A stretch of 64,000 nt of DNA from contig CAVYQE010000001.1 of the NCBI GenBank assembly GCA_963770565.1, positions 416,001 through 480,000 of the forward strand. The letters run 5' to 3'. The notes under the pieces are model-generated. The model was not told the origin of the DNA. It ran no database searches and saw only the letters and a list, made by a program, of their open reading frames with translations. The translations under genes were made by a program, and so were the position numbers. This document shows, one piece after another, positions 48,398-64,000 of the stretch; within the stretch, counting starts at the first letter, position 1; each line of letters starts with the position of its first letter. Source of the DNA: an uncultured Actinomycetota bacterium. GTDB lineage: Bacteria > Actinomycetota > Actinomycetes > JAFAQI01.

Positions 48398-49330
48398 ATG
48401 ACGCACGACGGGATTCCCGAGCTGGTGTATTCGGACGGCACGGTTGCCGACGACGACCTGCTCGATGCGCTCGACGATCTCGAGATCGACGTACTCATCG
48501 ACGACGACGGCGAGCCGACGTTGCTCGATGCACAAGGCCGGCCGGTCGAGACCTGGCGCGAGGGCTACCCCTATGACCGGCGGATGACCCGGTTCGACTA
48601 CGAGCGCACGAAGCGGCTGCTCCAGATCGAGCTGCTGAAGCTCCAGTCCTGGGTCAAGGCGGACGGCCGGCGGCTGGTCCTGCTGTTCGAGGGTCGGGAC
48701 GCGGCCGGCAAGGGCGGCACGATCCGGCGCTACACCGAGCATCTGAACCCGCGCGGCGCCCGCGTGGTGGCGCTCGAGAAACCGACCGACGTCGAGCGTG
48801 GCCAGTGGTATTTCCAGCGGTACGTCGAGCAGCTGCCCGCGGCCGGGGAGATCGTGTTCTTCGACCGCTCCTGGTACAACCGGGCCGGCGTCGAGCGGGT
48901 GATGGGGTTCTGCAGCGACGAGGAGTACCACCGGTTCATGGTCCAGGCGCCGCCGTTCGAGCGGATGCTGGTCGAGGACGGCATCGACCTGGTCAAGTTC
49001 TGGTTCTCGGTGACCCGCAGCGAGCAGCGCACCCGCTTCACGCTGCGCCGGGTCGACCCGGTCAAGCAGTGGAAGCTCAGCCCGATGGACCTCGCATCCC
49101 TGGATAAATGGGATGAATACACCGCGGCGAAGGAGCAGATGTTCCGCTCGACGCACACCTCGTTCGCTCCGTGGATGGTGGTGAAGAGCAACGACAAGCG
49201 GCGTGGGCGGATCGAGTCGATGCGCTACGTGCTGTCGCGGTTCGACTATCCGGGCAAGAACCGGGCCGTGGTGGGAGCGCCTGATCCGGTCCTCGTGGGC
49301 TCTCCCGACGCGGTGCTCGAGGACCGCTAG
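48398..49330 (+). CDS. ppk2: Polyphosphate kinase 2 (class I)
   Basis: FEGRDAAGKGG, DRSWYNRAGVE, KQWKLSPMD. Confidence 0.95.
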   Translation: MTHDGIPELVYSDGTVADDDLLDALDDLEIDVLIDDDGEPTLLDAQGRPVETWREGYPYDRRMTRFDYERTKRLLQIELLKLQSWVKADGRRLVLLFEGRDAAGKGGTIRRYTEHLNPRGARVVALEKPTDVERGQWYFQRYVEQLPAAGEIVFFDRSWYNRAGVERVMGFCSDEEYHRFMVQAPPFERMLVEDGIDLVKFWFSVTRSEQRTRFTLRRVDPVKQWKLSPMDLASLDKWDEYTAAKEQMFRSTHTSFAPWMVVKSNDKRRGRIESMRYVLSRFDYPGKNRAVVGAPDPVLVGSPDAVLEDR

Positions 49331-49358
49331 GAGCGCTACTCACAGCGCAACTTCTGGC

Positions 49359-49391
49359 GTTCATCTAGTGGTCATCCGGCGTTCGGCTTCC
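49359..49391 (+). promoter_or_regulatory. PHO-box-like 11-nt direct repeats
   Basis: GTTCATCTAGT GGTCATCCGGC GTTCGGCTTCC. Confidence 0.7.
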
Positions 49392-49479
49392 GTGCGTCGG
49401 TTGTCGTCGTCCGTCGGTTGTCGTGGTGTGACGGCAAATGCGTCAATCCGTGAGCGTTGCCACGACGAGGAGGAGTTGC

Positions 49480-49941
49480 GTGAAGTCGCCGCGGTTTCTG
49501 TTCGTCGTGGGCGTCGGTCGCGGCCCGGAGGCGCACCCGGTCTGGCCGGACGTGCACCAGAACTTCGAGGGTGAGGTCGACGCCGACGAGTCGTGGGTCG
49601 CGTGGCGCCTGACCGGCGCCAACCATCGCGAGCTCGGCCGCAGTTCGCGGGTGTTTCCGGACCTGACCACAGCCCGAGAGGACGCGATCGCTCTGCACGA
49701 GCGGATCGACCAGGCCCAGGCGCACATCCTCACCGTGCCGCACACCGGCACCTGGGGGTGGCGGCTGCGGCTCGACGACGTGCCGGTCGCGACTTCGAGC
49801 CGGGGATACGCCCGGCACCGCGAGTGCACCTACAACGTGGCGGCCTTCATGGCCGCCGCTGCCGTGGCGGAGCTCTCCGAAGGAGAGTTTCCGCGGGCCT
49901 GGAAGTTTCACATCGAGCCGATAGTTGGACCCGCGCTATGA
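49480..49941 (+). CDS. YegP/DUF1508-like tandem-repeat protein
   Basis: [14 protein letters not shown] and WGWRL...VATSSRGY repeats; GGAGGAG RBS. Confidence 0.6.
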
Positions 49942-49958
49942 CGACTGAGGGAGTATCG

Positions 49959-50798
49959 ATGACCACGGTTGCGCCACCGGTAATTGACATCGCGGTGGCC
50001 GAGTTGCCGCAGCGCAATCCCACCGGTGCCCATCTGGACGCGCAGCGTGTTTCGGCGTGGTTCGGCACGAACAAGGTGCTTGAACGGGTTTCGTTGTCAA
50101 TGCCGCCGGGCGTGGTGACGGCGCTCATCGGTCCGTCCGGGTGTGGAAAGTCGACCTTCCTCCGAATCCTCAACCGGATGCACGAGTCGGTGGTGGGCGC
50201 GAAGCTCGCCGGTGAGGTCCTGCTCAACGGTTCGGACATCTACGCTCCAAGCGCTCGGACGACCGAGACCAGGCGGCGGATCGGGATGGTCTTCCAGAAG
50301 CCCAACCCGTTCCCGACCATGTCGATCGCAGAGAACGTCACGGCCGGGCTCAGGCTCACCGGTACCAAGATCGCTAGATCTGATCGAACCGCTCTGGTCG
50401 AGGACTGCCTGCAACGCGGCGGGTTGTGGGGCGAGGTGAAGGACCGGCTCGACTCGCCTGGTGGCGCGTTGTCGGGCGGCCAGCAACAGCGGCTGTGCAT
50501 TGCCCGCTCGCTGGCGGTTAACCCCGACGTGCTCCTGATGGACGAGCCATGCTCGGCGCTCGATCCGACCTCGACCCGACGGATCGAGGAGACCATCGCC
50601 GTCCTGCGCGAGCAGGTCACGATCGTCATCGTCACGCACAACATGCAGCAGGCCGCGCGGGTTTCCCAGCAGTGTGCGTTCTTTCTGGCCGAGCAGGGGA
50701 CCCCGGGCCAGATCGTCGAGGCCGGGTCAACCGAGGACATCTTTGAACGGCCCAAGGACTCGCGCACCGCGGACTACGTCCACGGCCGCTTCGGCTGA
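49959..50798 (+). CDS. pstB: Phosphate ABC transporter ATP-binding protein
   Basis: [40 protein letters not shown], ends GRFG. Confidence 0.95.
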
Positions 50799-50886
50799 TC
50801 GACATTTCTCACGGCCGGTCCGCCGGCCCGTCCTGCCTGCACGCCTGGCTGGTCGACACGGGCTCGGTGGTTGCTCCCGGACAAGC

Positions 50887-50924
50887 GGTAGGGGCGTCAC
50901 CTCGATCGAGGTGACGCCCCTACC
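50887..50924. terminator. 38-bp perfect palindrome, probable bidirectional terminator
   Basis: GGTAGGGGCGTCACCTCGA|TCGAGGTGACGCCCCTACC between convergent genes. Confidence 0.8.
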
Positions 50925-50941
50925 AATGGGCGACCGGTGGC

Positions 50942-52072
50942 CTACTTCTTGATCTTCGTCGCAGCGGTTGTCGCAGTTCCGCTGGCATAGCCGGTCTTGT
51001 GCGCAGTCACCTTGCAGGTGAGCTTCTTGCCCTTGTCCGAGCTCGGTACCTTGAGCGAGGACTTGGTCGCATGCTTGATCTTCTTGCCGTTCACGTACCA
51101 CTGGTAGCTGTACGACGAAGCGGCCGGCGACCACTTACCCTTCGAGGCCTTCTCCGTCTTGCCGACCGTGTGCGGTCCGGAGAGCGTGGGCTTCGTCGTG
51201 GCGTGAAGTGCCTTGCCGATCGCGACCTTCTTCGACGTACTGGTGCCCGGCGTCGACCCGCCGCCGTTCGTCCCGGTTGCTCGGCAGGCGAGCGACTTCT
51301 TGTATTGGGATCCCGGAATCGTGTACGTGCTCTTGGTCGCGCCGGAGATCGCCTTCGTACTCGCCAGCCACTGGTAGCTGACCGACGTGGCTCCGGTGAA
51401 GGAAGCGTGGCAGGTCACCTTGTCGCCGACCCGGACGGTGCCGGAGAGCGTGACCTTGCCGTTGAGGGTCGGCGCAGCGCCCGGGTAGACGACCGTCCAG
51501 GTGTTGGCACCGGCGTCCACCGCGATGTCTACGCGGTCGTAGGCGCTGGTGTCAGGTTCCTGGCCCGGCCCCAGGGTGAAGATTCGCATCTCGTAAAGGT
51601 TCTGGTAGCCCGAATCGGTGAGGTTGTTCGGGTACTCACCGATGTAGTCGTCCATCGTCAGGTCTTCGGCCGTTCCAACTACGAACGGGTTGCCGCTGGC
51701 AGTTACTGCGGCTGGTACGCCGCCCGGCGCCGGGTCGTACTGGCCTGCGCTCAGAAGGTCGCCACTCCACGTCTGTGGGTTCGCACCGCCCTCCTGGGGT
51801 GTGTAGGCGTAGAGGTCGGCGTGGTTGTCACCGGAACGGCCCGCGTGACCGGCCACGGCGTACGCGGCAAAGGGCGCGCTGTCCAGTGTGCCGCCCGTGA
51901 TCACGTGTCCGCTGGAGTCGTAGAAGGTGATCGAGCCGATCGCGTTCGGGTCCGGCTCCCAGCCCGGCGTGACCGTAGCGGCTGACGTCCCTCCCATCGT
52001 GGTGAGCAGCGTGCCGACCGAGATCGCGAGTGCGCCGATCCCGGCGACCAGTCGCTGTCGCGTGAGCATCAT
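50942..52072 (-). CDS. Secreted protein: WEPDPNA domain plus two Lys-rich Ig-like repeats
   Basis: Signal peptide, GGAGG RBS, SYQW...I.GAT...CxxT repeats. Confidence 0.8.
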   Translation of the reverse strand: MMLTRQRLVAGIGALAISVGTLLTTMGGTSAATVTPGWEPDPNAIGSITFYDSSGHVITGGTLDSAPFAAYAVAGHAGRSGDNHADLYAYTPQEGGANPQTWSGDLLSAGQYDPAPGGVPAAVTASGNPFVVGTAEDLTMDDYIGEYPNNLTDSGYQNLYEMRIFTLGPGQEPDTSAYDRVDIAVDAGANTWTVVYPGAAPTLNGKVTLSGTVRVGDKVTCHASFTGATSVSYQWLASTKAISGATKSTYTIPGSQYKKSLACRATGTNGGGSTPGTSTSKKVAIGKALHATTKPTLSGPHTVGKTEKASKGKWSPAASSYSYQWYVNGKKIKHATKSSLKVPSSDKGKKLTCKVTAHKTGYASGTATTAATKIKK

Positions 52073-52181
52073 CGTTAGCCTCCGTCTCAGTGGCACTGGT
52101 CCCAAGACCCGCCTGACTTTCCCTGTCACCCTAGGTCGCACAAGCCCTTCGGTGATCGGCGCGAAGGACGCGTCGGCGGTT

Positions 52182-52214
52182 GTTCATTGGTCGGCCGCTG
52201 CTCGTTAACCTGCC
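52182..52214 (+). promoter_or_regulatory. PHO-box-like 11-nt repeats in the divergent promoter
   Basis: GTTCATTGGTC GGCCGCTGCTC GTTAACCTGCC. Confidence 0.5.
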
Positions 52215-52431
52215 AGTCGTTCCGTACCGGAATGGGTGGCACCGCTGAGGGCGCCTGGCGTCTCGGCCGCGCTCGAAACCGGCGGTCAGACGGCGGCCGC
52301 GGAGGACATCTGTTATTCGTCTTTGTGACACCCGGTGTTAGGTTTCAGTCTTCTCCACGGTTGCCAAAGGCCCGCAGTTTGGGCATTGCGCGGCTTGTCG
52401 CGCCCTAGGCACCTGGAGGGGAACTGGTCTG

Positions 52432-53451
52432 ATGACCACTGACACCCTTCGCCTCGCCCCAGGGCCTGAGTCCGAACCTGACGTCCCGCGCGCAATCAGC
52501 GGTGGGCATACGAGGCCGGACCAGGTCTTCAACGGCGTGGCTCGCGCGTTCGGGCTGTTCGTTCTGGTGCTGATGGCGGCGATCGGACTCTTTCTCGGGC
52601 TGCAGATGATCCCGGTGTTGAGGCATTACGGCTTCAACTTCTTCACCCGGGCGCAATGGGACCCGGACTTGAATCAGGTCGGTGTCAAGGCGGCAGTTTG
52701 GGGAACCATCGAGATCGCCTTTATCGCCCTCGTGGTCGGCTTCCCGCTGGCATTGGGCACCGCCCTGTTCATCACAGAGCTTGCTCCCCGGCGGCTCAGA
52801 TCGTTCCTCGTGTCAATGGTCGATCTGATGGCTGCTGTGCCCAGCATCATCTACGGCTTGTGGGGCTTGAACCTGCTCGAACCGCATGTGATTCACCTGT
52901 CCCGGTGGCTAGCGGAGTACTTCGGTTGGTTCCCGCTCTTTCACGTGGACACGGACACCCACGCTGCCGTTTGGCAGACGTCAAAGTTCACCTCGTCCGC
53001 ATTCATTGCAGGGCTCGCGGTCTCCATGATGGTGACACCGCTGACCTGCGCGATCATGCGTGGCGTGTTCGCGCAGGCACCACTCGGTGAGCGCGAGGCG
53101 GCGCTCGCGCTTGGCGCGACCAAATGGGGGGTGATCCGCTCGGTCGTGCTCCCCTTCGGTCGTGGCGGCATGATCGGCGGCACGATGCTCGGGCTCGGGC
53201 GAGCGTTGGGCGAGACAGTTGCGGTCCTTTTGATCATGGCGCAGTCGTTCAAGATCAGCCTGCATGCGCTGCAGAACGGTTACATCTCGATCTCCGCGCT
53301 CATCGCTAACTTCTTCAACTCCGCAACCTCGCTGCAACTGAAGGCATTGCTGGCCGCCGGATTCGTGCTGTTCGTGATGACCCTGATCGTCAACACGATC
53401 GCGGGAATCATCGTGAACCGCAGCCGCAGCGGCGCGGCGACGGAGATCTGA
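52432..53451 (+). CDS. pstC: Phosphate ABC permease PstC
   Basis: AAVPSIIYGLWG, EAALALGATKW, LGLGRALGET. Confidence 0.93.
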   Translation: MTTDTLRLAPGPESEPDVPRAISGGHTRPDQVFNGVARAFGLFVLVLMAAIGLFLGLQMIPVLRHYGFNFFTRAQWDPDLNQVGVKAAVWGTIEIAFIALVVGFPLALGTALFITELAPRRLRSFLVSMVDLMAAVPSIIYGLWGLNLLEPHVIHLSRWLAEYFGWFPLFHVDTDTHAAVWQTSKFTSSAFIAGLAVSMMVTPLTCAIMRGVFAQAPLGEREAALALGATKWGVIRSVVLPFGRGGMIGGTMLGLGRALGETVAVLLIMAQSFKISLHALQNGYISISALIANFFNSATSLQLKALLAAGFVLFVMTLIVNTIAGIIVNRSRSGAATEI

Positions 53452-53452
53452 A

Positions 53453-54556
53453 ATGGCCGCGATCACTTCAGCCGTGGAATCCGTCGACGCCAGCGCCGCG
53501 CCGGCTCCGGAGCCCGACCAGCCACGACGACTGGGCACCACCACCGTCGACGATGTGATGTCGCTGCTTGGCTCGATCGTGGGCGCGTTCGGGCTGGTGT
53601 GGATCGTTCTCTACCGCCTGCTCCCGCTGTCCGGAACGCTCGGTTTCGTCGTCTGCTGGTATGTCGTCTTCCTCGCGCTGTACACAGCGGTCACGGCGAT
53701 GTCGCACCCGAAGCCGATCGTCGTCGATCGGCTGGCGCGGAGCTTGATCTGCGGTGTTGCCGGAATCGTCGCCCTGGCGCTGGCGTCGACGATCCTCGAC
53801 ACCTTCCTTCGTGGCCGGCATGCCCTGGTGCACTGGAACTTCTACTCCAAGGACGCCAACGGCGTATCGCCGACGGCACCGTTGAACCAAGGCGGGATCC
53901 TGCACGCGATCGCCGGAACGTTCGTCGAGCTCGGCATCGCGACGGCAATTTCCCTTCCGTTGGGGATCGGCGCCGCGATCTACATGAGTGAGGTAGGCGG
54001 CCGACTGGCTCGCACGGTGCGCACGGTCGTCGAGGCGATGACCGCCCTTCCGGACCTGCTGGCTGGTCTGTTCATCTATACGACCGTGATCGTCGCGCTG
54101 AGATTCGAGAAGAGCGGCCTGACGGCCGCGCTTGCCCTTGCCATCACGATGCTCCCGATCATCGCCCGCTCGGCTGAGCTTCAGCTGCGGGTCGTGCCTG
54201 GCGGGTTGCGGGAGGCCGGGCTTGCCCTCGGCGCGCCGAAATGGCGCATGGTGCTGCGGGTCGTGCTGCCGACCGCGGCCACCGGCCTCGCGACCGCCCT
54301 CATCCTCGCCTTCGCTCGCGCGGTCGGCGAGACCGCTCCCGTGCTGATCGCGTCGGGGGCCACGCCGTTCCTTCGCTTCAATCCGACCGGTGAGCCGATG
54401 ATGTCGCTCCCGCTATACATCTTCACCGAGGTACGAAGCGGCCAGCCATTGGAGATCGAGCGCGCGTACGGAGCCGCCTGCGTGTTGCTGGCAATTGTGC
54501 TCGTGTTGTTCATGGCCCTACGGGTCCTGGCCCGACGGAAAGGCACTGTTCGGTGA
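53453..54556 (+). CDS. pstA: Phosphate ABC permease PstA
   Basis: LRVVPGGLREAGLALGA, ARAVGETAP, SLPLYIF. Confidence 0.92.
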   Translation: MAAITSAVESVDASAAPAPEPDQPRRLGTTTVDDVMSLLGSIVGAFGLVWIVLYRLLPLSGTLGFVVCWYVVFLALYTAVTAMSHPKPIVVDRLARSLICGVAGIVALALASTILDTFLRGRHALVHWNFYSKDANGVSPTAPLNQGGILHAIAGTFVELGIATAISLPLGIGAAIYMSEVGGRLARTVRTVVEAMTALPDLLAGLFIYTTVIVALRFEKSGLTAALALAITMLPIIARSAELQLRVVPGGLREAGLALGAPKWRMVLRVVLPTAATGLATALILAFARAVGETAPVLIASGATPFLRFNPTGEPMMSLPLYIFTEVRSGQPLEIERAYGAACVLLAIVLVLFMALRVLARRKGTVR

Positions 54557-56190
54557 ACGCTCGCCGGCTTCGTCCGACTCGGCTCGCCGTCCTTGCGGCG
54601 GCGATGCTGATGTCGGTCTTCTGGACCATGCCCACGCCCGCGTTCGCCTCGGGCACCACGCAGATCAACGGCTCGGGCTCGACCTGGGCCTACAACGCGG
54701 TCAACGCCTGGATCGGCGAGGTGTCTGCCCAGGGCCTTCGGGTGACGTTCAACCCGAACGGCTCGGCAGCGGGCCGCCAGGATTTCGCGAACCGAGCGGT
54801 CGACTACGCCGTCTCCGACATCGGCTTCCAGGGAAAGGACCCGTTGACCGGCACCAACGACACCTCGAGCGGGCGAGCGTTCGCGTACGTCCCACTGGTG
54901 GCGGGTGGCACGTCGTTTCCGTATCACCTGACGGTTGCGGGACAGCTGGTGCGCAACCTCAGGTTGTCCGGTGCGACCTTGGCAGGAATCTTCACGGGTT
55001 CGATCACCAACTGGGACGCGCCGCAGATCAGCAAAGACAACAACGGGAGGAAGTTCCCCTCGATTCCGATCGTGCCGCTCGTGCACTCGGAGGGCTCTGG
55101 GACGAGCTACCAGTTCTCCGCGTATCTGGCTCAGGATTTCTCCAGCGTCTGGTCCTCCTTCGCGGGCAAGGACAAGCCGACCGAGTATTGGCCGAGCGAC
55201 AAGGCCAACGAGATCGCGCTGAACGGGTCGGACCAGTTGATGAACTACCTCGCATCGCAATCGGGCCAGGGAGCGATCGGCTACGACGAATACTCGTATG
55301 CGATCGCAAAGAACATTCCGGTCGCCAAGATCGAAAACCAGGCGGGCTACTTCACACTCCCCACCCAGTACAACGTCGCGGTGGCGCTCACCCAGGCGAT
55401 CATCAACTACAACCAGAACTCGCCGGACTACCTGCTCGAGAGTCTCAAGGACGTATACGGGTACTCGGATAAGCGCACCTATCCGCTGTCGTCGTACTCG
55501 TACGGCATCATCCCTACGGCGGCGAACGACGGGACGATGAGCACTCCCAAGCGGCAGGCCCTCGCCGACTTCCTCTACACCTCGATCTGTCAAGGTCAAG
55601 GTGCGATCGGCCAGATCGGCTATTCAGCACTTCCGATCAACCTGGTTCAGGCTGCGTTCAAGCAAGTCGGCCTGCTCAAGAAGGTCGACTCGCAAGTCTC
55701 GCTCACCAACCTGAACGTGACGACCTGCGGCAACCCCACGTTCGTGGCCGGGAAGCCCAAGGAAAACCACCTGGCCCAGATCGCGCCCGAGCCGCCGTTG
55801 TGCGACGAGGTCGGGCATGGCCCCTGCACCACCAGCAACGACACCACCGGCCCGACCCCAACGACGGGCGGGAAGAGCTCGTCGCCGACCGGCTCGAAGA
55901 AGGGGAAAGGTGGCCACCACTCGAGCAGCCCGAGTCCCGGGACAAGCCCGAGTCCCGGGACCAGCCCGAGTCCCGGGACGAGTACTGGTGGAGGCATCGA
56001 TCCAGTGACCGGGCTGCGCAGTAGCGACCCGAACGGCACCTCGGGCACAGGGACGGTCGAGACCGAGCCGGTCACGCTCGGCACCGGTGCGTCGTCCGGC
56101 ACCGCGCTTGCGGTGCTTGCCGCTGTGCTCTTCCTCGCGGCGATCGTTGTCCCTCCGACCTTGGCTCGACGCTGGCTCCGCAGGAAGTGA
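54553..56190 (+). CDS. pstS: PstS-type phosphate-binding protein with C-terminal membrane anchor
   Basis: GSGST, GSAAG, VSD, SGTS, YPLSSYSY; signal peptide ending AFA; S/P/T linker, TM and RRWLRRK. Confidence 0.85.
   Translation: MNARRLRPTRLAVLAAAMLMSVFWTMPTPAFASGTTQINGSGSTWAYNAVNAWIGEVSAQGLRVTFNPNGSAAGRQDFANRAVDYAVSDIGFQGKDPLTGTNDTSSGRAFAYVPLVAGGTSFPYHLTVAGQLVRNLRLSGATLAGIFTGSITNWDAPQISKDNNGRKFPSIPIVPLVHSEGSGTSYQFSAYLAQDFSSVWSSFAGKDKPTEYWPSDKANEIALNGSDQLMNYLASQSGQGAIGYDEYSYAIAKNIPVAKIENQAGYFTLPTQYNVAVALTQAIINYNQNSPDYLLESLKDVYGYSDKRTYPLSSYSYGIIPTAANDGTMSTPKRQALADFLYTSICQGQGAIGQIGYSALPINLVQAAFKQVGLLKKVDSQVSLTNLNVTTCGNPTFVAGKPKENHLAQIAPEPPLCDEVGHGPCTTSNDTTGPTPTTGGKSSSPTGSKKGKGGHHSSSPSPGTSPSPGTSPSPGTSTGGGIDPVTGLRSSDPNGTSGTGTVETEPVTLGTGASSGTALAVLAAVLFLAAIVVPPTLARRWLRRK
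55927..55980 (+). repeat. 18-bp tandem repeat x3 (SPSPGT) in the PstS stalk
   Basis: AGCCCGAGTCCCGGGAC(A/C/G) x3. Confidence 0.9.
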
Positions 56191-59000
56191 TGGCGCGAGT
56201 GCGATCAACGAGCCCGACCCGGCACCCTCGCGCGTACATCGGCGCGGCAACCCTTGCGGTGGTGCTGGCCGGTCCGCTTGCCGTGGCATCCGGATCGCCG
56301 GCGGCAGAGGGCATTTCCGACCACCCGGTGACAGTGAGCAAGACGGTCACCCGCACGAACATCCTGCCTGATGGCCAGCAGCAGACTGTCGTCAAGAAGA
56401 AGGTGACGGTCTCAGTCAGCGCAACGACGGGGCTTCGGACGCTTCAGCAGATCAACGTGTCTTGGAAGGGCGCATATCCGACCAACTACATAGACCCGGA
56501 CCCGAACTCAGCGAATGCCTCGTCGTATCAGGAGTATCCGGTTGTTGTCCTTGAATGCCGTGGCGTGGACTCGACGAAGGTTCCGCCGAAGGACCGGCTG
56601 AGCCAGCAAAACTGTTGGACCCAGTACAACATCGAGCGAAATGCTTCTGCGCCGGGCACCGAGTTCCCGCCGTGGCGAATGGACCGGTACGCCGGCAATC
56701 TCGGCCTGTTCCCCCACAAACCGAAGAAGCTGCCAACCGGTTGTTCGCCGTACAGCTTTGGTGAAGCCGATTATTTCGAGCCGCTGAGGGCGCTGAACGG
56801 GAGGAGCTACTACGGCGGGCCGACGCTCGCCTGTAGCACGTTGTCTCCGGAGCAGTCGGGATTCACGGCCGACTTCCCGGACAACACGACCTTCGGCGTG
56901 ACCGGTGCGGGTGGTGCGGGTCGGGCAAAGTTCGTGGTGTGGAGCAGCGAGACGAACGAGACGCTGGGCTGCTCGGCGACTGTGAAGTGCTCACTCGTTG
57001 TGATTCCGATCGTCGGGATCAGCTGTGATGAGCGGTCAAAGTCCGCGGATGAGACCCCGCAGGACGTCGACCATTGCGACTATGCCGACACCGAGCATGG
57101 CCTGCTCGAGAATGCCGCTGGTGAGCTCAGCAGCCCTGGCCAGATGGCGCTGGAGTCTGTGACCGGCGAGCTGTGGTGGTCGGCGTCGAACTGGCGCAAC
57201 CGGATCTCGATCCCGCTGTCATTCGCGCTGCCCTCTGATTACTGCGCCGTCGTGAACAAGCGTGCATCAGTGTTCGTGTACGGATCGGAACTGATGAACG
57301 AAGCTGCGCAGCAGTGGAGCCCCGAATTCTGCACCGACTCAAAGCGGACGCCGTTCACCCAGATCGCGCAGGCTGAACCCGCGGCTGTGAACGAGCTCAA
57401 TGAGCGTTCGATCGATGCTGCGTACGAGACCTATCCTCCCAAACCCGCCGGTAGAGCCGGGCCACCGGTCGTGAACGCACCGGTGGCGGTCAGCGGCTTC
57501 GCAATATCGACAGTGGTCGACGATGCACAGCACAACGAGGACTTTGATGTCAAGCTCGACCCTCGGCTGCTCGCCAAACTCCTGACCGAGTCCTATCCGG
57601 ACCTTCCCGACATCGCCCAGAACGACGGTATGGCGAACAACCCACTCAACATCACGCTCGACCCTGAGTTTCGGGCGCTCAACCCCGACGTGCCCGAGGA
57701 GACCGCAAGTTCGGGCTTCCAGATCATCACCGATGCCCGTGCCACGCTGATGGCACTGTCCTCGGACTCCGATGTGACGCACGCGTTGACCGCATACATC
57801 GCGGCCGATCCGGCGGCAATGGCCTTCATCGACGGCAAGCCCGATCCGTGGGGCATGGTCGTCAATCCCAGCTACAAGGGGACGAAGCTGCCGACTGACT
57901 TCTGGCCGCTGAAGGACACTTATATTCCATATGCCGTCTACAACAGTGACCAGACGTCCTGCTTCGCCCAGGCTCGCTATCAGGTGCCGTACCTTCCGCT
58001 GGTCGCCTCGCCGTTGCTGACCTTGTCGAGCATCGCGTACGACCTCGAGTTCTCGTTGCCGAACTCGGTGACCTCCTGTTTCGTCAGTGTGGGAACCCCC
58101 GAGGCGGACAAGCTGATCACCGGCCCCCGACAAGCTCCCGGTGAAAGATTCCTGCTCGGTATCACATCTTTGTCTGAAGCCAAGCGCTACGACCTTGACA
58201 CGGCCGAACTCGAATCCCAATCGACGGTGTCGCCGACGACGGCATTCACGAGTGCAGAGGGGAGCACGTTCGTCCACCCGACTAACGCCTCGTTGACCGC
58301 CGCGACGAAGGCGCTCGTGCCCGACAAGGCGGACAACAGTTGGCGTCTTGACTACGACAAGCTGCGCACGAGTCCCTCGGAGGCAAACGCCTACCCCGGG
58401 ACCATGCTGGTGTCGATGAGCGTTCCGACGGCGGGGCTTGCCGCCGCGGACGCCAAGGCGTACTCACAAATGCTCGCGTTTTCGGCCGGGCTGGGCCAAA
58501 CGCCCGGGCCAGACTTCGGCCAACTTGCCGCGGGATACCTGCCGATGACGACCGCGAACGGTCTCGGCGCATTAGCGAGCTACACGCAGCGGGCCGCCGC
58601 GGTAGTCGCTGCGCAGCAATGTGAAGTCCCCAACGTGGACAACTCGGCTCAGGCCCGCTCCACGTGGAGCGGATGCCCACCGCCGCCACCACCTCCGTCG
58701 CACTCACCCTCGCCAACCCCTGACTCGAGCTCGACATCGCAGCCATCGTCCGGACAGACCTCGATTCCCGCGGTGAACAGTCCATCGGCGAGCGCTTCGC
58801 CGAGCTCACCGGGAGGTAGTCCGACGGTTGCCCCGTCCCCGTCGCCGACTCCAGTCGCCGAGGCCACGCCGATCTCGCCAGTGGGATCGTGGGTGTATTT
58901 CCTGCCGGCGGTGGTTTTCGCTGGGCTGCTCTGCGGCGGCGCCGTGGGCGGCACCTGGCTGCTTCGGCGTTATCGCGGTAGACGCGGGTCGGCTCCGTGA
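56187..59000 (+). CDS. Large secreted Cys-rich protein with degenerate PstS-like domain and C-terminal TM
   Basis: Signal peptide; VYGSELMNEAAQQW, APVAVSG, AYPGTM, GYLPM; poly-Pro/Ser linker, TM, basic tail. Confidence 0.75.
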   Translation: MMARVRSTSPTRHPRAYIGAATLAVVLAGPLAVASGSPAAEGISDHPVTVSKTVTRTNILPDGQQQTVVKKKVTVSVSATTGLRTLQQINVSWKGAYPTNYIDPDPNSANASSYQEYPVVVLECRGVDSTKVPPKDRLSQQNCWTQYNIERNASAPGTEFPPWRMDRYAGNLGLFPHKPKKLPTGCSPYSFGEADYFEPLRALNGRSYYGGPTLACSTLSPEQSGFTADFPDNTTFGVTGAGGAGRAKFVVWSSETNETLGCSATVKCSLVVIPIVGISCDERSKSADETPQDVDHCDYADTEHGLLENAAGELSSPGQMALESVTGELWWSASNWRNRISIPLSFALPSDYCAVVNKRASVFVYGSELMNEAAQQWSPEFCTDSKRTPFTQIAQAEPAAVNELNERSIDAAYETYPPKPAGRAGPPVVNAPVAVSGFAISTVVDDAQHNEDFDVKLDPRLLAKLLTESYPDLPDIAQNDGMANNPLNITLDPEFRALNPDVPEETASSGFQIITDARATLMALSSDSDVTHALTAYIAADPAAMAFIDGKPDPWGMVVNPSYKGTKLPTDFWPLKDTYIPYAVYNSDQTSCFAQARYQVPYLPLVASPLLTLSSIAYDLEFSLPNSVTSCFVSVGTPEADKLITGPRQAPGERFLLGITSLSEAKRYDLDTAELESQSTVSPTTAFTSAEGSTFVHPTNASLTAATKALVPDKADNSWRLDYDKLRTSPSEANAYPGTMLVSMSVPTAGLAAADAKAYSQMLAFSAGLGQTPGPDFGQLAAGYLPMTTANGLGALASYTQRAAAVVAAQQCEVPNVDNSAQARSTWSGCPPPPPPPSHSPSPTPDSSSTSQPSSGQTSIPAVNSPSASASPSSPGGSPTVAPSPSPTPVAEATPISPVGSWVYFLPAVVFAGLLCGGAVGGTWLLRRYRGRRGSAP

Positions 59001-59929
59001 GCGCTGGTGTCCTCGACGATCGGGCGCAGCCGGATGCGACGTCAGGTGTGACGTCCGGCCGTCGCCGCCCGCGGGCGCCGCAGGCACCCCTGTCCACTCC
59101 GGCAGCGATCTCGGTCGCGGCTGCGGCGATCCTCTTTGCGGTCGCGATCTGGGCCATTCTCTACGCGTTCGTGCTTAGTGGCGTGCAGGAGCACACCGCC
59201 CAACGCGGCCTGTACGCGAAGCTTCGATTGGAACTGGCGAACGAGGTGGCGCCGGTCGGGGGGCAGGTCGCCGACGGCGCCCCGATCGCCCTCATCAACG
59301 TGCCTGCGCTGGACCTGAAGGACAACGTGGTGGTCGAGGGGACCACCACGACGGACCTGCAGAACGGGCCCGGTCACCAGGTCAACACGGTGTTTCCGGG
59401 CCAGGCGGGCGTGTCGGTGATCTACGGCAAGAGCGCCACCTTCGGCGCTCCGTTCCGGAGCGTGTCCCATCTTCGATCCGGCGACAAGGTCATTGCCACC
59501 ACAGGGCAGGGCACCTTCACCTACACGGTCAACGACGTGCGCCGGGCCGGCGATCCACTGCCGCAGCCGCTGGCGGCCGGTCAGGGCCGACTGACCTTAG
59601 TCGCCGCGGTCGGCCACGGTTGGCGCGCTGGTTGGGCGCCTTCGCAGATCGTCTACATCGACGCCACGTTGAACGGCAAAGGCAAGGCCTCGCCGTCGGG
59701 TGGCCCGGCCCTGCAGCCCGCCAGCCAACTTCCCATGTCGCGTGACGACTCGGCGCTGACCCCATTGGTGCTGTGGTTGGAGTTGCTGGTCGTTACTTCT
59801 GTCGCTTTTGTGTGGGCCCGAGGTCGCTGGGGCGGTTGGCAGGTGTGGCTGGTGGGAACTCCTGCACTTCTTGCAGTCGTTTGGGTTGTGACGGAGACGG
59901 CCGCGCGACTATTGCCCAATCTGCTCTGA
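58997..59929 (+). CDS. Sortase-fold membrane protein lacking the catalytic His/Cys
   Basis: VVEGT...L..GPGH...T.FPGQ.G...G...FGAPF...L..GD...LTLV; no Cys in 310 aa. Confidence 0.82.
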   Translation: MSAGVLDDRAQPDATSGVTSGRRRPRAPQAPLSTPAAISVAAAAILFAVAIWAILYAFVLSGVQEHTAQRGLYAKLRLELANEVAPVGGQVADGAPIALINVPALDLKDNVVVEGTTTTDLQNGPGHQVNTVFPGQAGVSVIYGKSATFGAPFRSVSHLRSGDKVIATTGQGTFTYTVNDVRRAGDPLPQPLAAGQGRLTLVAAVGHGWRAGWAPSQIVYIDATLNGKGKASPSGGPALQPASQLPMSRDDSALTPLVLWLELLVVTSVAFVWARGRWGGWQVWLVGTPALLAVVWVVTETAARLLPNLL

Positions 59930-59949
59930 GGCAAACACTGCCGGGCATC

Positions 59950-60004
59950 GTTCGTCTGCTGTTCAGCATCTAGCGACCTTCTAGCCCGATGACCTCCCTA
60001 GGTT
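59950..60004 (+). promoter_or_regulatory. PHO-box-like repeats plus -10 TAGGTT
   Basis: GTTCGTCTGCT GTTCAGCATCT; TAGGTT at 59999-60004. Confidence 0.55.
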
Positions 60005-60049
60005 TGGCGGGTCGGAGATGGACTCCGTAAAACCTCCCGAGGAGGGTGC

Positions 60050-61345
60050 ATGTTCAAAAGGGCCAAAACCGCCCTGGCGATCGGCGCCGTGGGATCGACC
60101 GCCGCGCTGCTCGTTACGATGCAGCCGGCGTTCGCTGACCCCCAGGCGCGGCCAGGTGACGCGGTCGTTGTGGGTTCTGACACTGTGCAGAACGCTGCCG
60201 ACTTCCTGTTCAGCGGCGATGTCAGTGGCGACCCGGCATACAACACCGGCAAGACCAACGAGATCTACAACATCACCGCGACCGGCGACAACAACGGCCG
60301 AGCTCTCTATGACCCCAATGGCAACCTGCTGTACGGCGTCGGCACCACCTCAGTCGTGATGCGGGCCGGCACCAAGCCGGTCGAGCGGGTCGATGGCTCA
60401 GGGGCTGGCATCACCGCCTTGACCGCCGACTCCCTTGGCGGCGCGGGCTACAACGGGCTGGTTAACGGATCGTTCACCTTCTCGCGCTCCTCGCGGCTGC
60501 CAAAGGCTGCGGAGCAGTCGGCGTGTGCAGCAATCGCGGGCTGCGGCGGGCTGCACGTCTTCCAGCTCGCCACGGACAACCTCGAAATGGCGGTCAGCAG
60601 CGTCTCCACGAACGCGTTCCCGATGTCGACCACGCAGCTGGCGTATGTCTACAGCCACTGTGACGGCTCTCAGGGCGTCGAGTTTTCCGAGGTCCCCAAT
60701 GCTCCTGGTGGGGCTTCGAACAACCACATCATCCCAACAATCCCGCAGGCCGGCTCGGGCACGCGCGGCTCGTTCGAGTCCGACATCGGGGTTTCGGACG
60801 CCACGATCACGTCAACCCCCTGCCTTCGGATCAGCGAAGAGCACGACCCGACCGGCGTTACCCTCGCGACGCAACCGGGATCTAGCACGCTCGACCCGGC
60901 GGACGCGATCGAGCCGTTCTCAGTGGGCAAGATCAAGCTCATCCAGAGCGGGTACTACGGCAACAGCGGTCAGCCGGCGTCGAACTTCCAGATCACGCTG
61001 ATGACGGGTTGCACAACCGGCGACCAGACACCGAACTGCCCGACGGCCCACCAGATCCTGGCCAGCGACGGCAATCCGGTGTACGACAACACCCGAGGCA
61101 TGTACCTGCTGGCGCGTGACTTCGACCTCAACCTGACGCCTGGTGTGGGCGTATGCGCCTCAGGTGGAGCCGATGCAAGCTACGGCCAGTGCAAGCCGTC
61201 GCAGCCCGGTGGCACCAAGAACTGGGTGAACGATGTGTTGAAGGGCGCGACGTCCTGGATTGCTCGGGCGGCAAACGCCCCGGACATTGCAGCGGCCGGC
61301 TTCACCGCGAACTACGCGGACCTCGGCGACGCCTCGTCCGGCTGA
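60050..61345 (+). CDS. Secreted PstS-like (PBP2-fold) protein without anchor
   Basis: Signal peptide AFA-DP, VGSDT, GSGAG, SRSSR, PQAGSGTR, EEHD; GAGGAGG RBS. Confidence 0.75.
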   Translation: MFKRAKTALAIGAVGSTAALLVTMQPAFADPQARPGDAVVVGSDTVQNAADFLFSGDVSGDPAYNTGKTNEIYNITATGDNNGRALYDPNGNLLYGVGTTSVVMRAGTKPVERVDGSGAGITALTADSLGGAGYNGLVNGSFTFSRSSRLPKAAEQSACAAIAGCGGLHVFQLATDNLEMAVSSVSTNAFPMSTTQLAYVYSHCDGSQGVEFSEVPNAPGGASNNHIIPTIPQAGSGTRGSFESDIGVSDATITSTPCLRISEEHDPTGVTLATQPGSSTLDPADAIEPFSVGKIKLIQSGYYGNSGQPASNFQITLMTGCTTGDQTPNCPTAHQILASDGNPVYDNTRGMYLLARDFDLNLTPGVGVCASGGADASYGQCKPSQPGGTKNWVNDVLKGATSWIARAANAPDIAAAGFTANYADLGDASSG

Positions 61346-61375
61346 TCGGATTCTTCGCAATCTCGTGAGGTAATG

Positions 61376-61419
61376 CCTCTCCCCGGTGCCACGGCTTGGC
61401 AGCGGGCACCGGGGAGAGG
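61376..61419 (+). terminator. Stem-loop after the PstS-like gene
   Basis: CCTCTCCCCGGTGCC...GGCACCGGGGAGAGG 15-bp stem. Confidence 0.7.
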
Positions 61420-61518
61420 ACTTCGAAGGGGACCGGACCAGGGCCCAGCCCCTCGTCCATCATGCGCCCTTTCGGATTGATCGTCCAAGTCGAATCGACT
61501 CAAACAGGGAGACAATCC

Positions 61519-63378
61519 GTGAGAATCAGTCTTAAGCGTGCGTCCACCGGGGTGGGAGCCCTGGCGCTCGCGGCCGGCCTTGTGCTTGCCTCGAGCGGGG
61601 TGGCGTCCGCATCCACCAACGTCGGGTGGGAGCCCGACCCGAACGCGATCGGCACGATCACGCTGCTCGACTCGAACGGCGTGCCGATCACGGGCGGCAG
61701 TCTCGACTCGCACCCGTTTGCGGCGTACGCAGTCGCCTCGCACCAGGGACGTAGCGGGATCGACAGCAAGGGCCAACTCTACGCATACACCCCACAGGTC
61801 GGCACCAACCCGCAGACCTGGAGCGGCGACCTGCTCAGCGCCGGCACCTATAGCCCCGCGCCCGCAGGGACCCCGGCGGACGTGTCGAGTACGGGTCTTC
61901 CATTCGTCACCGGTGGATCCGCCGACTTCTCCTTCAACGACTACATCAGTGAGTACCCGAACACGCTGTCGACGACCGGCTACGTGAACCTCTACCAGTT
62001 GAGGTTCTACACCGCCGGCTCGCAGGCGCCGGACACCACCGCGTACGACGTCGTGGACATCCAGGTCAACACCTCTGCGGACACCTGGCAGGTCGTCTAC
62101 CCGGGTGCGGCGAACGGCAACTACCCGGACGCCACGGATGCCACCACGACGACGCTTACCACTACGCCGAGCAGCCCGGACACGTCCAGCAACAACCCGG
62201 AGACGGTAACCCTGCACGCGTCCGTCAGTGCCGCCACGGCGGTTCCGTCCGGCTACACCGGCGGGATCGGCACGGTGTCGTTCTTCGACGGGACCACGCC
62301 GGTCGGCTCACCGCAACTGGTCAGCGGAACTGGCCCTTACACGGCCAGCGTCACCGACTCAGTGCCCAACCCGTCGTCGCACACGTTCACGGCGAAGTTC
62401 GCTCCGTATGTCGGCACCGGCCTGGCCGCCTCACAAGGGTCAGCACCGTTCCAGGTCGGCGCTCCGGTTCCTGGCACCACCACGGCTCTCTCGGTGACCC
62501 CGGGTCAGTTTGCGGGTGACCAGAACAGCTACACCGCCACGGTTACGTACCCGGCGGGGACGAACTGCACCGGTACCGTCAACTTCTTCGACGGCACGAC
62601 ACTTGTTGCAGGGCCGATCAGCCCGAAGCCGGGTACTCCGAACGAGTTCGACGCGACGAACACCTTCAACGCGCCGGACTCGCACTCAATTACTGCGGCG
62701 TTCACCCCGGCCGACCCGTCCGTTTGCGGTGGGTCGACCTCGTCGCCGTCGACGTTCTCGCAGGGCGCAAACCCGAACGGTCCTTGTGCGACGTCGAACG
62801 GCGGTCAGTGCACCGATGTCCAGACGATCACGACCACGGTGCCCCAGGGCATCTTGGTCATCTCCACGCCCTACACGGCCAGCAACCCGCTGAACCTGGG
62901 GACGATGTCACTGGACAGCACCGGCACGATGTTCACTGCGCACGCTACGTTCGGCGCGAGCTCGACGGACGCGACGCAGGACATCTACGTCACCGACACC
63001 CGTTCGGGTGACCTCCCGTGGACGGCTCAGGCGCAGGCCTCGAACCTGTCCGACGGTGGGTCGAACGTCAGCTCGCAGATCAGCGGCGAGAACGTCGGGC
63101 TGTCCGGTCTCACGGAGGTTCCGGTCACGGGTAACGGGTTCGACGGTACGGCGACGAACTTCACCACCTACAACAACTTCGCCGCCAGCCCGGCCGTTGC
63201 TCCGACCGACACAGGTACCGCCGGTCTCGGGAACGCTGCGCATGACATCGCTCAGGCGCAGCACGGTACTGGTTCGATCGGTCTCACCGGGACGCTCACT
63301 GTGAACGCCCCGAGCTCCACCGAGCCCGGTACGTTCACCGGCACGGTTACCTTCACGCTGGTCGGCAGCCTGGTTTAG
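61519..63378 (+). CDS. Secreted protein: WEPDPNA domain, two Big_3-like Ig domains, C-terminal WxL-like domain
   Basis: TTTTL...GTVSFFDGTT...HTFTAKF repeats; VTDTRSGDLPWT, ENVGLS, PSSTEPGTFTGTVTFTL. Confidence 0.78.
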   Translation: MRISLKRASTGVGALALAAGLVLASSGVASASTNVGWEPDPNAIGTITLLDSNGVPITGGSLDSHPFAAYAVASHQGRSGIDSKGQLYAYTPQVGTNPQTWSGDLLSAGTYSPAPAGTPADVSSTGLPFVTGGSADFSFNDYISEYPNTLSTTGYVNLYQLRFYTAGSQAPDTTAYDVVDIQVNTSADTWQVVYPGAANGNYPDATDATTTTLTTTPSSPDTSSNNPETVTLHASVSAATAVPSGYTGGIGTVSFFDGTTPVGSPQLVSGTGPYTASVTDSVPNPSSHTFTAKFAPYVGTGLAASQGSAPFQVGAPVPGTTTALSVTPGQFAGDQNSYTATVTYPAGTNCTGTVNFFDGTTLVAGPISPKPGTPNEFDATNTFNAPDSHSITAAFTPADPSVCGGSTSSPSTFSQGANPNGPCATSNGGQCTDVQTITTTVPQGILVISTPYTASNPLNLGTMSLDSTGTMFTAHATFGASSTDATQDIYVTDTRSGDLPWTAQAQASNLSDGGSNVSSQISGENVGLSGLTEVPVTGNGFDGTATNFTTYNNFAASPAVAPTDTGTAGLGNAAHDIAQAQHGTGSIGLTGTLTVNAPSSTEPGTFTGTVTFTLVGSLV

Positions 63379-63412
63379 GCCAGCGCGCTGACAAGCGTCG
63401 GCACAGCAGAAG

Positions 63413-63450
63413 GGTCGGGGCGGGCCGAAGCGGCCCGCCCCGACCTCTTT
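63413..63450 (+). terminator. Intrinsic terminator
   Basis: GGTCGGGGCGGGCCG-AAG-CGGCCCGCCCCGACC followed by TCTTT. Confidence 0.8.
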
Positions 63451-63457
63451 ACTCTCT

Positions 63458-63490
63458 GTTCATCCCTGGATCGATGGGCGTTCATGCATT
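63458..63490 (+). promoter_or_regulatory. PHO-box-like 11-nt repeats
   Basis: GTTCATCCCTG GATCGATGGGC GTTCATGCATT. Confidence 0.55.
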
Positions 63491-64000
63491 CACGGTTACC
63501 TCTTGATGTGACTCGCACGGCCGGTCGTCTGCGCGCCGCGCTGCGGGCGGCAGTCTTCGGGCTTGCTGTCGCAGTCGCGACCCTCGTGGTCAACGCCGGC
63601 GGTTCGTCGGCAAGAGCGAAGCCGACGAGCGTCGCCTTTCGCCTGGTCGAGAAGAGCGGTAGCGGGTCATCCCAGAAGGCGGCAGCGAAGAACAAGGCAA
63701 CCTGGGGGATCGGTCCTGCGTCGCGCAAGAAGATCGACGGTCGGCCGGACTACAAATGGTTCGTCTCACCCGGCGCAGTCCTGCACGACCATGTCGCGAT
63801 CGAAAATCTCAGCAAGCGCTCACTCAAGTTGTTCGTGTATGCGCGGGACGCCACCAATGCTCCCAACGGCCAGCTCGCCCTCCAGCCCAGGCAGGCTGCG
63901 CCGCAGGGAATTGGCGCCTGGGTGACGATCGACCTTCCGCAGCACCGAGATTGGGTGATCGTCGGAGCCCGGTCGACGCTGATTCTGCCCTTTACTCTGC
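63484..64000 (+). CDS. DUF916-like (WxL-interacting) protein, 3'-truncated by window edge; not in the ORF track
   Basis: Hand translation: signal peptide, then TWGIGPA...DGRPDY...PGAVLHDHVAIENLS...LFVYARDA...IGAWVTI...LPFTL. Confidence 0.75.
   Translation, partial: MHSRLPLDVTRTAGRLRAALRAAVFGLAVAVATLVVNAGGSSARAKPTSVAFRLVEKSGSGSSQKAAAKNKATWGIGPASRKKIDGRPDYKWFVSPGAVLHDHVAIENLSKRSLKLFVYARDATNAPNGQLALQPRQAAPQGIGAWVTIDLPQHRDWVIVGARSTLILPFTL

Follow-up and report, generated by a model that had tools for sequence, protein, structure and literature searches.

A conserved actinobacterial gene block joining a second Pst-type importer with surface PstS-fold proteins: a possible apparatus for phosphate collection

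We analysed a 64,000-nucleotide stretch of DNA from an uncultured Actinomycetota bacterium (G000:C1:416001-480000, referred to as the window) and in it a block of genes, at window positions 48398..64000, that places a Pst-type phosphate importer next to several PstS-fold and surface proteins. A preliminary description of this DNA had listed, in order, ppk2, a YegP-like gene, pstB, an inverted gene for a secreted protein, the run pstC-pstA-S1-S2-sortase (S1 and S2 being PstS-like), a third PstS-like gene (S3), an immunoglobulin-like (Ig)/WxL gene and a DUF916-like gene, and every one of these is present as listed. The run from pstC to the sortase gene is closely coupled, with one 1-nt gap and three 4-nt GTGA overlaps. 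The DUF916-like gene is truncated by the window end, and the block extends beyond it with the rest of this gene, a gene for an X domain (see below) with a transmembrane helix (X-TM) and, on the opposite strand, a gene for a WxL-like protein with a membrane tail (W-TM), past which lie an SLT gene, an NlpC/P60 gene and a phosphoesterase gene. Its members within the window are as follows.

49959..50798, plus strand: PstB ATPase; Walker A, signature, Walker B and H-loop all intact
50942..52072, minus strand: secreted X domain followed by a tail of two basic Ig-like repeats; the gene is inverted at this locus and elsewhere most often lies downstream in the operon
52432..53451, plus strand: PstC of the block's own clade; TIGR02138 above cut-off, Arg/Glu motif intact
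53453..54556, plus strand: PstA; TIGR00974 above cut-off, Arg motif intact
54553..56190, plus strand: S1, PstS-type binding protein (PF12849, 4e-31) with a long linker and a C-terminal helix
56187..59000, plus strand: S2; N-terminal domain (residues ~45-345), PstS fold (357-810), linker and C-terminal helix
58997..59929, plus strand: pseudo-sortase with a class E-like barrel; His replaced by Lys and Cys by Ala, membrane helices at the N- and C-terminus
60050..61345, plus strand: S3, secreted unanchored PstS-fold protein; its profile matches PstS/DING structures
61519..63378, plus strand: X-Ig-Ig-WxL protein, candidate cargo-bearing pilin; reading frame open from 61396
63484..64000, plus strand: 5' part of a predicted DUF916/WxLIP-like membrane-anchored chaperone (390 aa, ends at G000:C1:480656)

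Contigs were profile-searched with the S2 alignment, and the best 79 loci of at least 488 confirmed stretches were combined with 11 more distant loci and the present locus into a set of 91 (L108, whose S2 was missed by the open reading frame (ORF) filter, is excluded from locus counts). As these loci were picked by S2 and many are truncated at contig ends, all locus counts are lower bounds. S1 is present in 82 of the 91, PstA in 81, PstC in 75, the sortase in 72, PstB in 69, S3 in 60, X in 59, the DUF916-like protein in 43, the WxL protein in 39, the YegP-like protein in 28 and the SLT protein in 11. The order pstC-pstA-S1-S2 is unbroken in all 73 loci that hold the four genes, and the sortase gene adjoins S2 in 65 of 72. 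Such a neighbourhood comparison had been proposed in the preliminary description, and it finds the pst, PstS-like and sortase-fold genes co-occurring across Actinomycetota. The distribution is patchy, since S2 occurs in at least 14 of 401 genomes of the phylum (a lower bound from a strict initial search) and in 15 of 41 relatives, the present genome (G000) counted in. With a distant S2 as query, 525 clusters at 50% identity were retrieved (E 1e-30); cultured carriers belong to Streptomyces and Nocardioides, among them Nocardioides sp. Root240, Streptomyces niveus and S. nodosus. In several genomes the block, or its core, is present twice (L056, L058; G420, G422, G425, G436). We conclude that the block is a real conserved module of Actinomycetota. 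A literature search, with subscription journals mostly outside its coverage, returned no description of it, and the accessible parts of PMC7866108 and PMC13118837 do not mention it.

PstB of the block has its best match in TIGR00972, at 333.9 bits just below the cut-off of 343.2, and stands at 58% to housekeeping PstB. Arg and Glu residues of PstC and PstA are required for the transport of inorganic phosphate (Pi); in the block proteins the Arg/Glu motif is preserved in 75 of 76 PstC and the Arg in 83 of 84 PstA sequences. The genome also holds a separate, ordinary pstSCAB on contig C2, whose PstS has a lipobox, and in 28 of 30 carriers a further pstC above cut-off lies outside the block (counted by eye; G412 has none and G418 fragments). 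In a midpoint-rooted FastTree phylogeny of 103 PstC sequences, 75 from blocks and 28 others (26 of those from the same genomes), the block PstCs form a single clade apart from the 28 others (support 0.998, branch 0.63). This phylogeny, likewise suggested at the outset, identifies the block Pst as a paralogue distinct from the housekeeping system. The possibility that the block is a broken or rearranged housekeeping pst was rejected on account of the ordinary pstSCAB on C2 and the separate clade of the block PstC.

All three binding proteins had been called PstS-like, and the fold assignment holds for each of them: for S1 by its Pfam match, for S2 by comparison of its structural model and for S3 by its profile, which matches solved PstS/DING chains at E 1e-14. 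S1 carries a lipobox in none of 77 members and a C-terminal transmembrane helix in 75 of 77. For its pocket we relied on what we take to be the ligand positions of the E. coli phosphate-binding protein (10, 38, 56, 135, 137, 139). S1 was aligned with this protein (1ixh) and with M. tuberculosis PstS3 (4lvq), and positions were counted over 78 sequences, 2 housekeeping rows having been taken out of 80. Most S1 keep the phosphate ligands S/T10, S38, D/E56, D/E137 and S139, and 16 S1 of more divergent loci have a canonical-type pocket (Ser38, Arg135, Asp137, Ser139). S1 is the probable cognate binding protein of the importer. S3 keeps the Ser/Thr ligands; a C-terminal transmembrane helix is found in 0 of 46 members and a lipobox in 1 of 46.

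S2 has no Pfam match and no lipobox in any of 75 members. Its AlphaFold2 model has a predicted local distance difference test score (pLDDT) of 85, and residues 357-810 superpose on M. tuberculosis PstS3 with a VIA Z of 31.1 (root-mean-square deviation 2.5, 310 residues aligned). The N-terminal domain belongs to no Pfam family and gave no match in an Atlas search; a supposed likeness to domains of the neocarzinostatin type was dropped as it had no Pfam support. The pocket was mapped by an hhalign alignment to S1 (weak, P 0.003) together with the register of the structural alignment. At the position of Thr10 S2 has Glu368 (112 of 118), at Ser38 Glu397 (114 of 118, with Asp in 4 more), at Gly140 Asp529 (118 of 118), and Leu at the equivalent of Arg135; the E368, E397 and D529 positions are acidic in 54 of 54 divergent members as well. 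With a pocket of near-invariant acidic residues, S2 therefore probably does not bind phosphate, and the site may instead accommodate a cation or a basic peptide. The same acidity, together with the altered pockets of S1 and S3 and a housekeeping Pst that already serves free Pi, would suit a cargo other than free Pi, namely phosphate paired with a metal, or phosphorus in some other form (mineral-bound phosphorus, polyphosphate, phosphorylated wall fragments), of which S2 would hold the cation and S1 and S3 the anion. We consider this unlikely, as the permease motifs are of the Pi-permease type, the 16 divergent S1 have a canonical-type pocket, no constant hydrolase neighbour was found among the 50 of 80 recurring neighbour ORFs scanned, and the S2 pocket assignment itself derives from a weak profile alignment and a structural register.

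The sortase-fold protein shares its N-terminal barrel with class E sortases (SrtE; PDB 5go5 and 5cuw, E 1e-12) but lacks the catalytic His and Cys and has extra C-terminal membrane helices. Across 72 members the His site is occupied by Arg (56), Lys (15) or His (1) and the Cys site mostly by Ala (33) or Ser (33), never by Cys, so that the earlier designation as a pseudo-sortase, with the His-Cys-Arg triad lost, is justified. As this dead sortase is the only PF04203 match in a genome that is 95% complete, the C-terminal tails found here are probably plain membrane anchors; no sortase-anchored LPxTG terminator was seen, the tails being plain helices, and no active sortase was found in this genome. 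Alternatively, the ATP-binding cassette (ABC) core might import little on balance and have taken on a new role in sensing, or in driving the assembly of an adhesion layer or fibre made under phosphate starvation. The dead sortase and the pseudo-binding protein that belong to this core, its redundancy to housekeeping Pst, an SLT-family neighbour gene in 11 of the 91 loci and S1 pockets that are degenerate in part of the family fit this alternative, but nearly invariant Pi-permease motifs and a core that persists where the pilus genes are absent do not, and WxL pili of the Elr system assemble without an ATPase according to the accessible part of a preprint (10.64898/2026.10.17.759780); we regard it as quite unlikely.

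The secreted protein of the inverted gene begins with an X domain of about 165 aa that is also present in the WxL protein (the two match at 63% over 174 aa), and the domain occurs in the architectures X-TM, X-Ig(n) and X-Ig-Ig-WxL. It belongs to no Pfam family, the Atlas returned unnamed clusters only (at most 0.82), and hhalign detected no link among the profiles of X, the S2 N-terminal domain, the WxL protein and the DUF916-like protein. Of 401 genomes searched with the X profile, 2 gave a match, and these are carriers. The last 90 residues of X-Ig(n) proteins are basic in 24 of 26, the pilin Ig domains neutral to acidic in 30 of 30, and the X protein with basic Ig tail is a probable wall-binding display protein. 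In four loci S3 is itself fused to Ig domains that end in basic tails, and there the next gene is pstB or the sortase gene, without an X gene between. These arrangements suggest that X couples free S3 to an anchor, and that X and basic Ig tails probably serve to display a secreted PstS. A complex prediction of S3 with both X types scored 0.73 and partner-replaced controls 0.00, but a control with X-TM replaced reached 0.83, so the prediction is not evidence either way. Two Streptomyces-type loci encode an Ig stalk that bears a domain weakly resembling X and has an LAxTG-like tail. In L019, L020, L071, L084 and L085 no stop codon separates the DUF916-like from the X-TM reading frame, which may mean a real fusion or an internal start.

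Upstream of the block genes the most enriched 6-mer is GTTCAC (35 of 89 regions vs 10.75 expected), in agreement with the 11-nt PhoP repeat given in the accessible part of PMC2275107. A three-unit PHO model seeded on this motif was trained without the present genome and without L018, and three held-out regions, the housekeeping pstS promoter among them, all pass it. A scan of G000 returned 54 sites of at least 15 bits, with DUF47-pit at rank 1, ppk1 at 2, the block at 4, phoU/kinase at 7, pstS at 9 and the DUF916 site at 11; ranks 3, 5, 6, 8 and 10 have no evident phosphate link. The phosphate control proposed earlier is supported by these sites at the level of sequence, the held-out model placing the block promoter fourth in the genome. 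Four sites lie in the block.

49348..49402, plus strand: PHO-box-type array of 11-nt direct repeats 5' of the YegP-like gene and pstB; 22.1 bits, rank 4 of 54
52182..52214, plus strand: PHO-box-like site 5' of pstC; 14.4 bits, unit pair 22 nt apart
59950..59982, plus strand: weak PHO-box-like site 5' of S3; 13.6 bits, not discriminating, as an equally strong site lies within S3
63458..63490, plus strand: PHO-box-like site 5' of the DUF916-like gene; 18.7 bits, rank 11

The outermost part of the block is the pair formed by the WxL and DUF916-like proteins. According to the accessible part of the same preprint, from October 2026 (bioRxiv 10.64898/2026.10.17.759780), donor-strand exchange links WxL proteins into polymers on a DUF916 chaperone in the membrane, the chaperone being defined there by PF06030 and PF11797 both at or above the gathering score; the system is described as confined to Bacillota, with a small Actinomycetota chaperone satellite noted. 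DUF916 beside actinobacterial genes had already been noted in PMC12537917, as far as that source was accessible. In the present genome both proteins fall below the Pfam cut-offs (WxL protein, no match; DUF916, PF06030, 19.9 bits vs 27.3). At the family level, WxL (PF13731) is found in 22 of 37 members at E 0.1 (best 4.8e-7) and WxLIP_PGBD in 30 of 40; the chaperone profile matches the solved EfmWxLIP1 (E 3e-11), and the DUF916-like protein has a C-terminal transmembrane helix in 33 of 34. PF11797 (DUF3324) was found in 0 of 40 DUF916-like members at E 0.05, the WxL-protein profile (from which the frameshifted L020 sequence was excluded) gave nothing meaningful against PDB sequences, and in whole-model fold searches the matches were filled by the Ig domains. 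The WxL and DUF916 calls of the preliminary description hold at the family level, while the pair is optional and not a constant part as had been implied: both proteins are co-present in 37 loci, and the pair is absent from Nocardioides/Marmoricola-type loci (L045-47, L054, L055, L058, L078). Two elements accompany the WxL gene.

62815..62841, plus strand: candidate internal donor strand directly 5' of the WxL domain, with an alternating hydrophobic pattern
63412..63446, plus strand: 16-bp stem-loop after the pilin gene, a terminator or mRNA stabiliser

The alternating hydrophobic residues of the candidate strand are kept in 34 of 37 and 36 of 37 sequences, 3 residues before strand A. The strand is unpaired in the AlphaFold2 monomer, where model residues 390-415 fall under pLDDT 50, and in WxL-only proteins the candidate strand is N-terminal. 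Downstream of the WxL gene, 25 of 35 loci have a hairpin with a stem of at least 11 bp, where 0.6 would be expected; the corresponding counts are 19 of 53 for S3, 14 of 36 for X-Ig, 0 of 82 for pstC and 2 of 38 for the chaperone gene. Since the hairpins follow genes for secreted subunits and not pstC or the chaperone gene, we read them as a sign of higher amounts of the secreted subunits.

Beyond the block, the chaperone profile matches 86 of 401 Actinomycetota genomes (a tally that includes the unpublished G048 and G001), and a WxL domain adjoins the chaperone in 27 of 30 fetched loci, either as a small WxL-only protein or behind cargo. The WxL/DUF916 pair is a general actinobacterial display module and an optional add-on to this block; it is probably an unrecognised pilus family. 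Pairs away from Pst (L121-L150) are common in Actinomycetota, with Metallophos (L130, L131), HtaA (L125), TIM barrel (L127) or fn3 (L133) cargo, or with small WxL-only proteins (L140, L141, L143, L146, L147, L149). In two loci (L001:5641-6666, minus strand; L018:19348-20274, minus strand) a WxL-like domain lacks the candidate donor strand, has Cys both at strand A and immediately behind its final strand, and is joined to a His-rich linker and a membrane helix; a stapled, acceptor-only anchor is a possible interpretation.

That the pair occurs so widely with other cargo and is optional here, and that several sub-operons have their own PHO-like sites, is what would be expected if there were neither fibre nor physical coupling, DUF916 being a static 1:1 anchor of WxL and the surface genes co-regulated passengers of a Pho island beside an ordinary second Pst. 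Such a passenger role sits poorly with the overlap of S1, S2 and the sortase gene with pstA in one coupled run, with an X domain seen in carriers only, with a conserved candidate donor strand that is N-terminal in WxL-only proteins, and with a hairpin after the WxL gene and not after the chaperone gene, which points to unequal amounts; it appears distinctly improbable to us.

Instead, we read the block as a Pho-regulated surface apparatus that would collect phosphate outside the membrane and feed a dedicated Pst-type importer, and we give this reading a probability of about 0.5. Its parts, folds, conservation and PHO-box-type sites are computed; from them we infer capture, relay and a physical complex. 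Upon phosphate starvation a PhoP/RegX3-type regulator would switch the block on, and PstC, PstA and PstB of the block clade would import Pi handed over by S1 on its long membrane tether. S3, made in higher amounts, would be displayed away from the membrane, either through a basic Ig tail that is fused to it in 4 loci and would bind the wall, or by docking to X, and X domains would be positioned at three levels, at the membrane (X-TM), in the wall (X with basic Ig tail) and along a fibre. Where present, the DUF916-like chaperone would polymerise X-Ig-Ig-WxL by donor-strand exchange into a pilus with X on every subunit, while S2, binding a cation or basic peptide and not phosphate, would form with the dead sortase a non-catalytic membrane scaffold or co-receptor. 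A more specific version, rather unlikely on present evidence, is the mining of mineral- or metal-bound phosphate, in which a chaperone-assembled donor-strand pilus with an S3-docking domain on every subunit and a cation-binding pseudo-PstS would supply the importer, as one cargo variant of an unrecognised, phylum-wide WxL pilus family.

A number of observations weigh against the proposed apparatus. The same genomes have a normal Pst, and Pi diffuses through the wall, which leaves the benefit of a relay unexplained. In the binding pockets, S1 has Arg at position 135 in only 20 of 78 sequences (His in 41, Gln in 14), 14 S1 members combine Asp38, Ser/Ala56 and Gln135, and S3 has Gln at the Arg135 site in 49 of 56. 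The four S3 fusions fall into two PstC sub-clades and represent at most two independent events, and the X profile fails on divergent X domains (0 in G374), so that it does not establish a genome-wide absence of X where S3 is fused. Regarding control, sites of at least 14 bits occur in 25 of 64 loci vs 1.0 in shuffles, a comparison that is circular for the training loci, and scores of about 12-14 bits are also found within genes. As for the pilus, many complete loci lack the WxL/DUF916 pair, the block yielded no small major pilin made of WxL alone, and the DUF916-like protein falls outside the two-Pfam definition of the preprint. The candidate strand follows the pattern Q-x-[IVL]-x-[VATG]-x-[IV] and departs from the Elr consensus [S/T]-x-[G/A]-x-[V/I]-x-F, with no Phe at P14, and its low pLDDT may stem from a shallow alignment (28 rows, predicted template modelling score 0.46).

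The arrangement resembles several known systems in part. With PstSCAB of E. coli, M. tuberculosis (PstS1-3) and Streptomyces it shares intact PstC, PstA and PstB motifs, the PstS fold and PHO-box-type control; it differs in forming its own clade beside a housekeeping copy, in the lack of a lipoprotein PstS, in having two C-terminally tethered binding proteins (one acidic) and a free one, and in its obligate pseudo-sortase and its X and Ig display proteins. The Isd system of Staphylococcus aureus is a layered surface relay for heme built from NEAT domains, an active sortase B and an ABC importer. Layered surface receptors are likewise encoded here beside a sortase-fold gene and an ABC importer, but these receptors have the PstS fold instead of NEAT domains and the sortase is catalytically dead. 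In common with Elr/Csc pili are a C-terminal WxL-like domain, an adjacent DUF916-like protein with a C-terminal helix and an unpaired candidate strand. Unlike those pili, the block belongs to Actinomycetota, has sub-cut-off Pfam matches and no DUF3324, carries its strand internally behind cargo domains, and shows neither a small major pilin nor an LPxTG terminator, nor an active sortase in the genome. PstS-fold proteins are also found on appendages of Pseudomonas aeruginosa under phosphate limitation (PstS/DING; PMC3949141, PMC2242829), but that organism is Gram-negative and its display genes are unrelated, and the accessible parts of these sources describe no dedicated second permease, WxL or sortase-fold part.

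Two genes at the left edge of the region remain to be placed.

48398..49330, plus strand: ppk2 (PF03976 1e-98; TIGR03707 above cut-off), a Pho-island neighbour
49438..49941, plus strand: DUF1508/YegP-like gene (weak DUF1508, E 0.069); start probably near 49480, behind a tract resembling a ribosome-binding site

The inclusion of ppk2 in the system, as first described, was abandoned, as it adjoins the block in 3 of 91 loci only. For the YegP-like gene, 3 of 12 scanned homologues reach DUF1508 at 2e-5 to 4e-4. Other neighbours among the 91 loci are ppk1 (4), CYTH-CHAD (5) and pit (1). Further along, a 966-aa secreted phosphoesterase (PF04185; L001:10943-13843, plus strand) lies 7 kb past the window behind a weak PHO-like site of 13.3 bits, and a 15.5-bit PHO-like site is located between the SLT-family gene (L001:6789-7865, minus strand) and the NlpC/P60 gene (L001:8279-9409, plus strand). 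A 991-aa PKD-domain protein (L114:205-3177, minus strand) follows a strong PHO-like site of 21.5 bits, which is duplicated at G000:C4:27178 on a second contig, possibly an assembly duplicate. Within the window, an aminotransferase/desulfurase-like gene (41733-43455, assigned by eye) appears to be split over two overlapping frames near 42190 by a frameshift or an assembly error. A protein with a membrane domain and a thioredoxin CxxC motif (43823-45574, minus strand), which presumably resembles DipZ, is encoded a few kb from a block of Cys-rich secreted proteins.

The folds of the block are mostly known, whereas the machine as a combination is not. Among its parts are a PstS fold with inverted charge, a sortase that is conserved but non-catalytic, and two domain families that match no known one. 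WxL-type donor-strand pili would be extended from Bacillota into Actinomycetota with a new subunit design of cargo, donor strand and acceptor. In most soils growth is limited by phosphorus, and actinobacteria are abundant there; if the proposed apparatus is real, a widespread second Pst equipped with dedicated surface receptors would fill a gap in the account of how soil actinobacteria acquire phosphorus.

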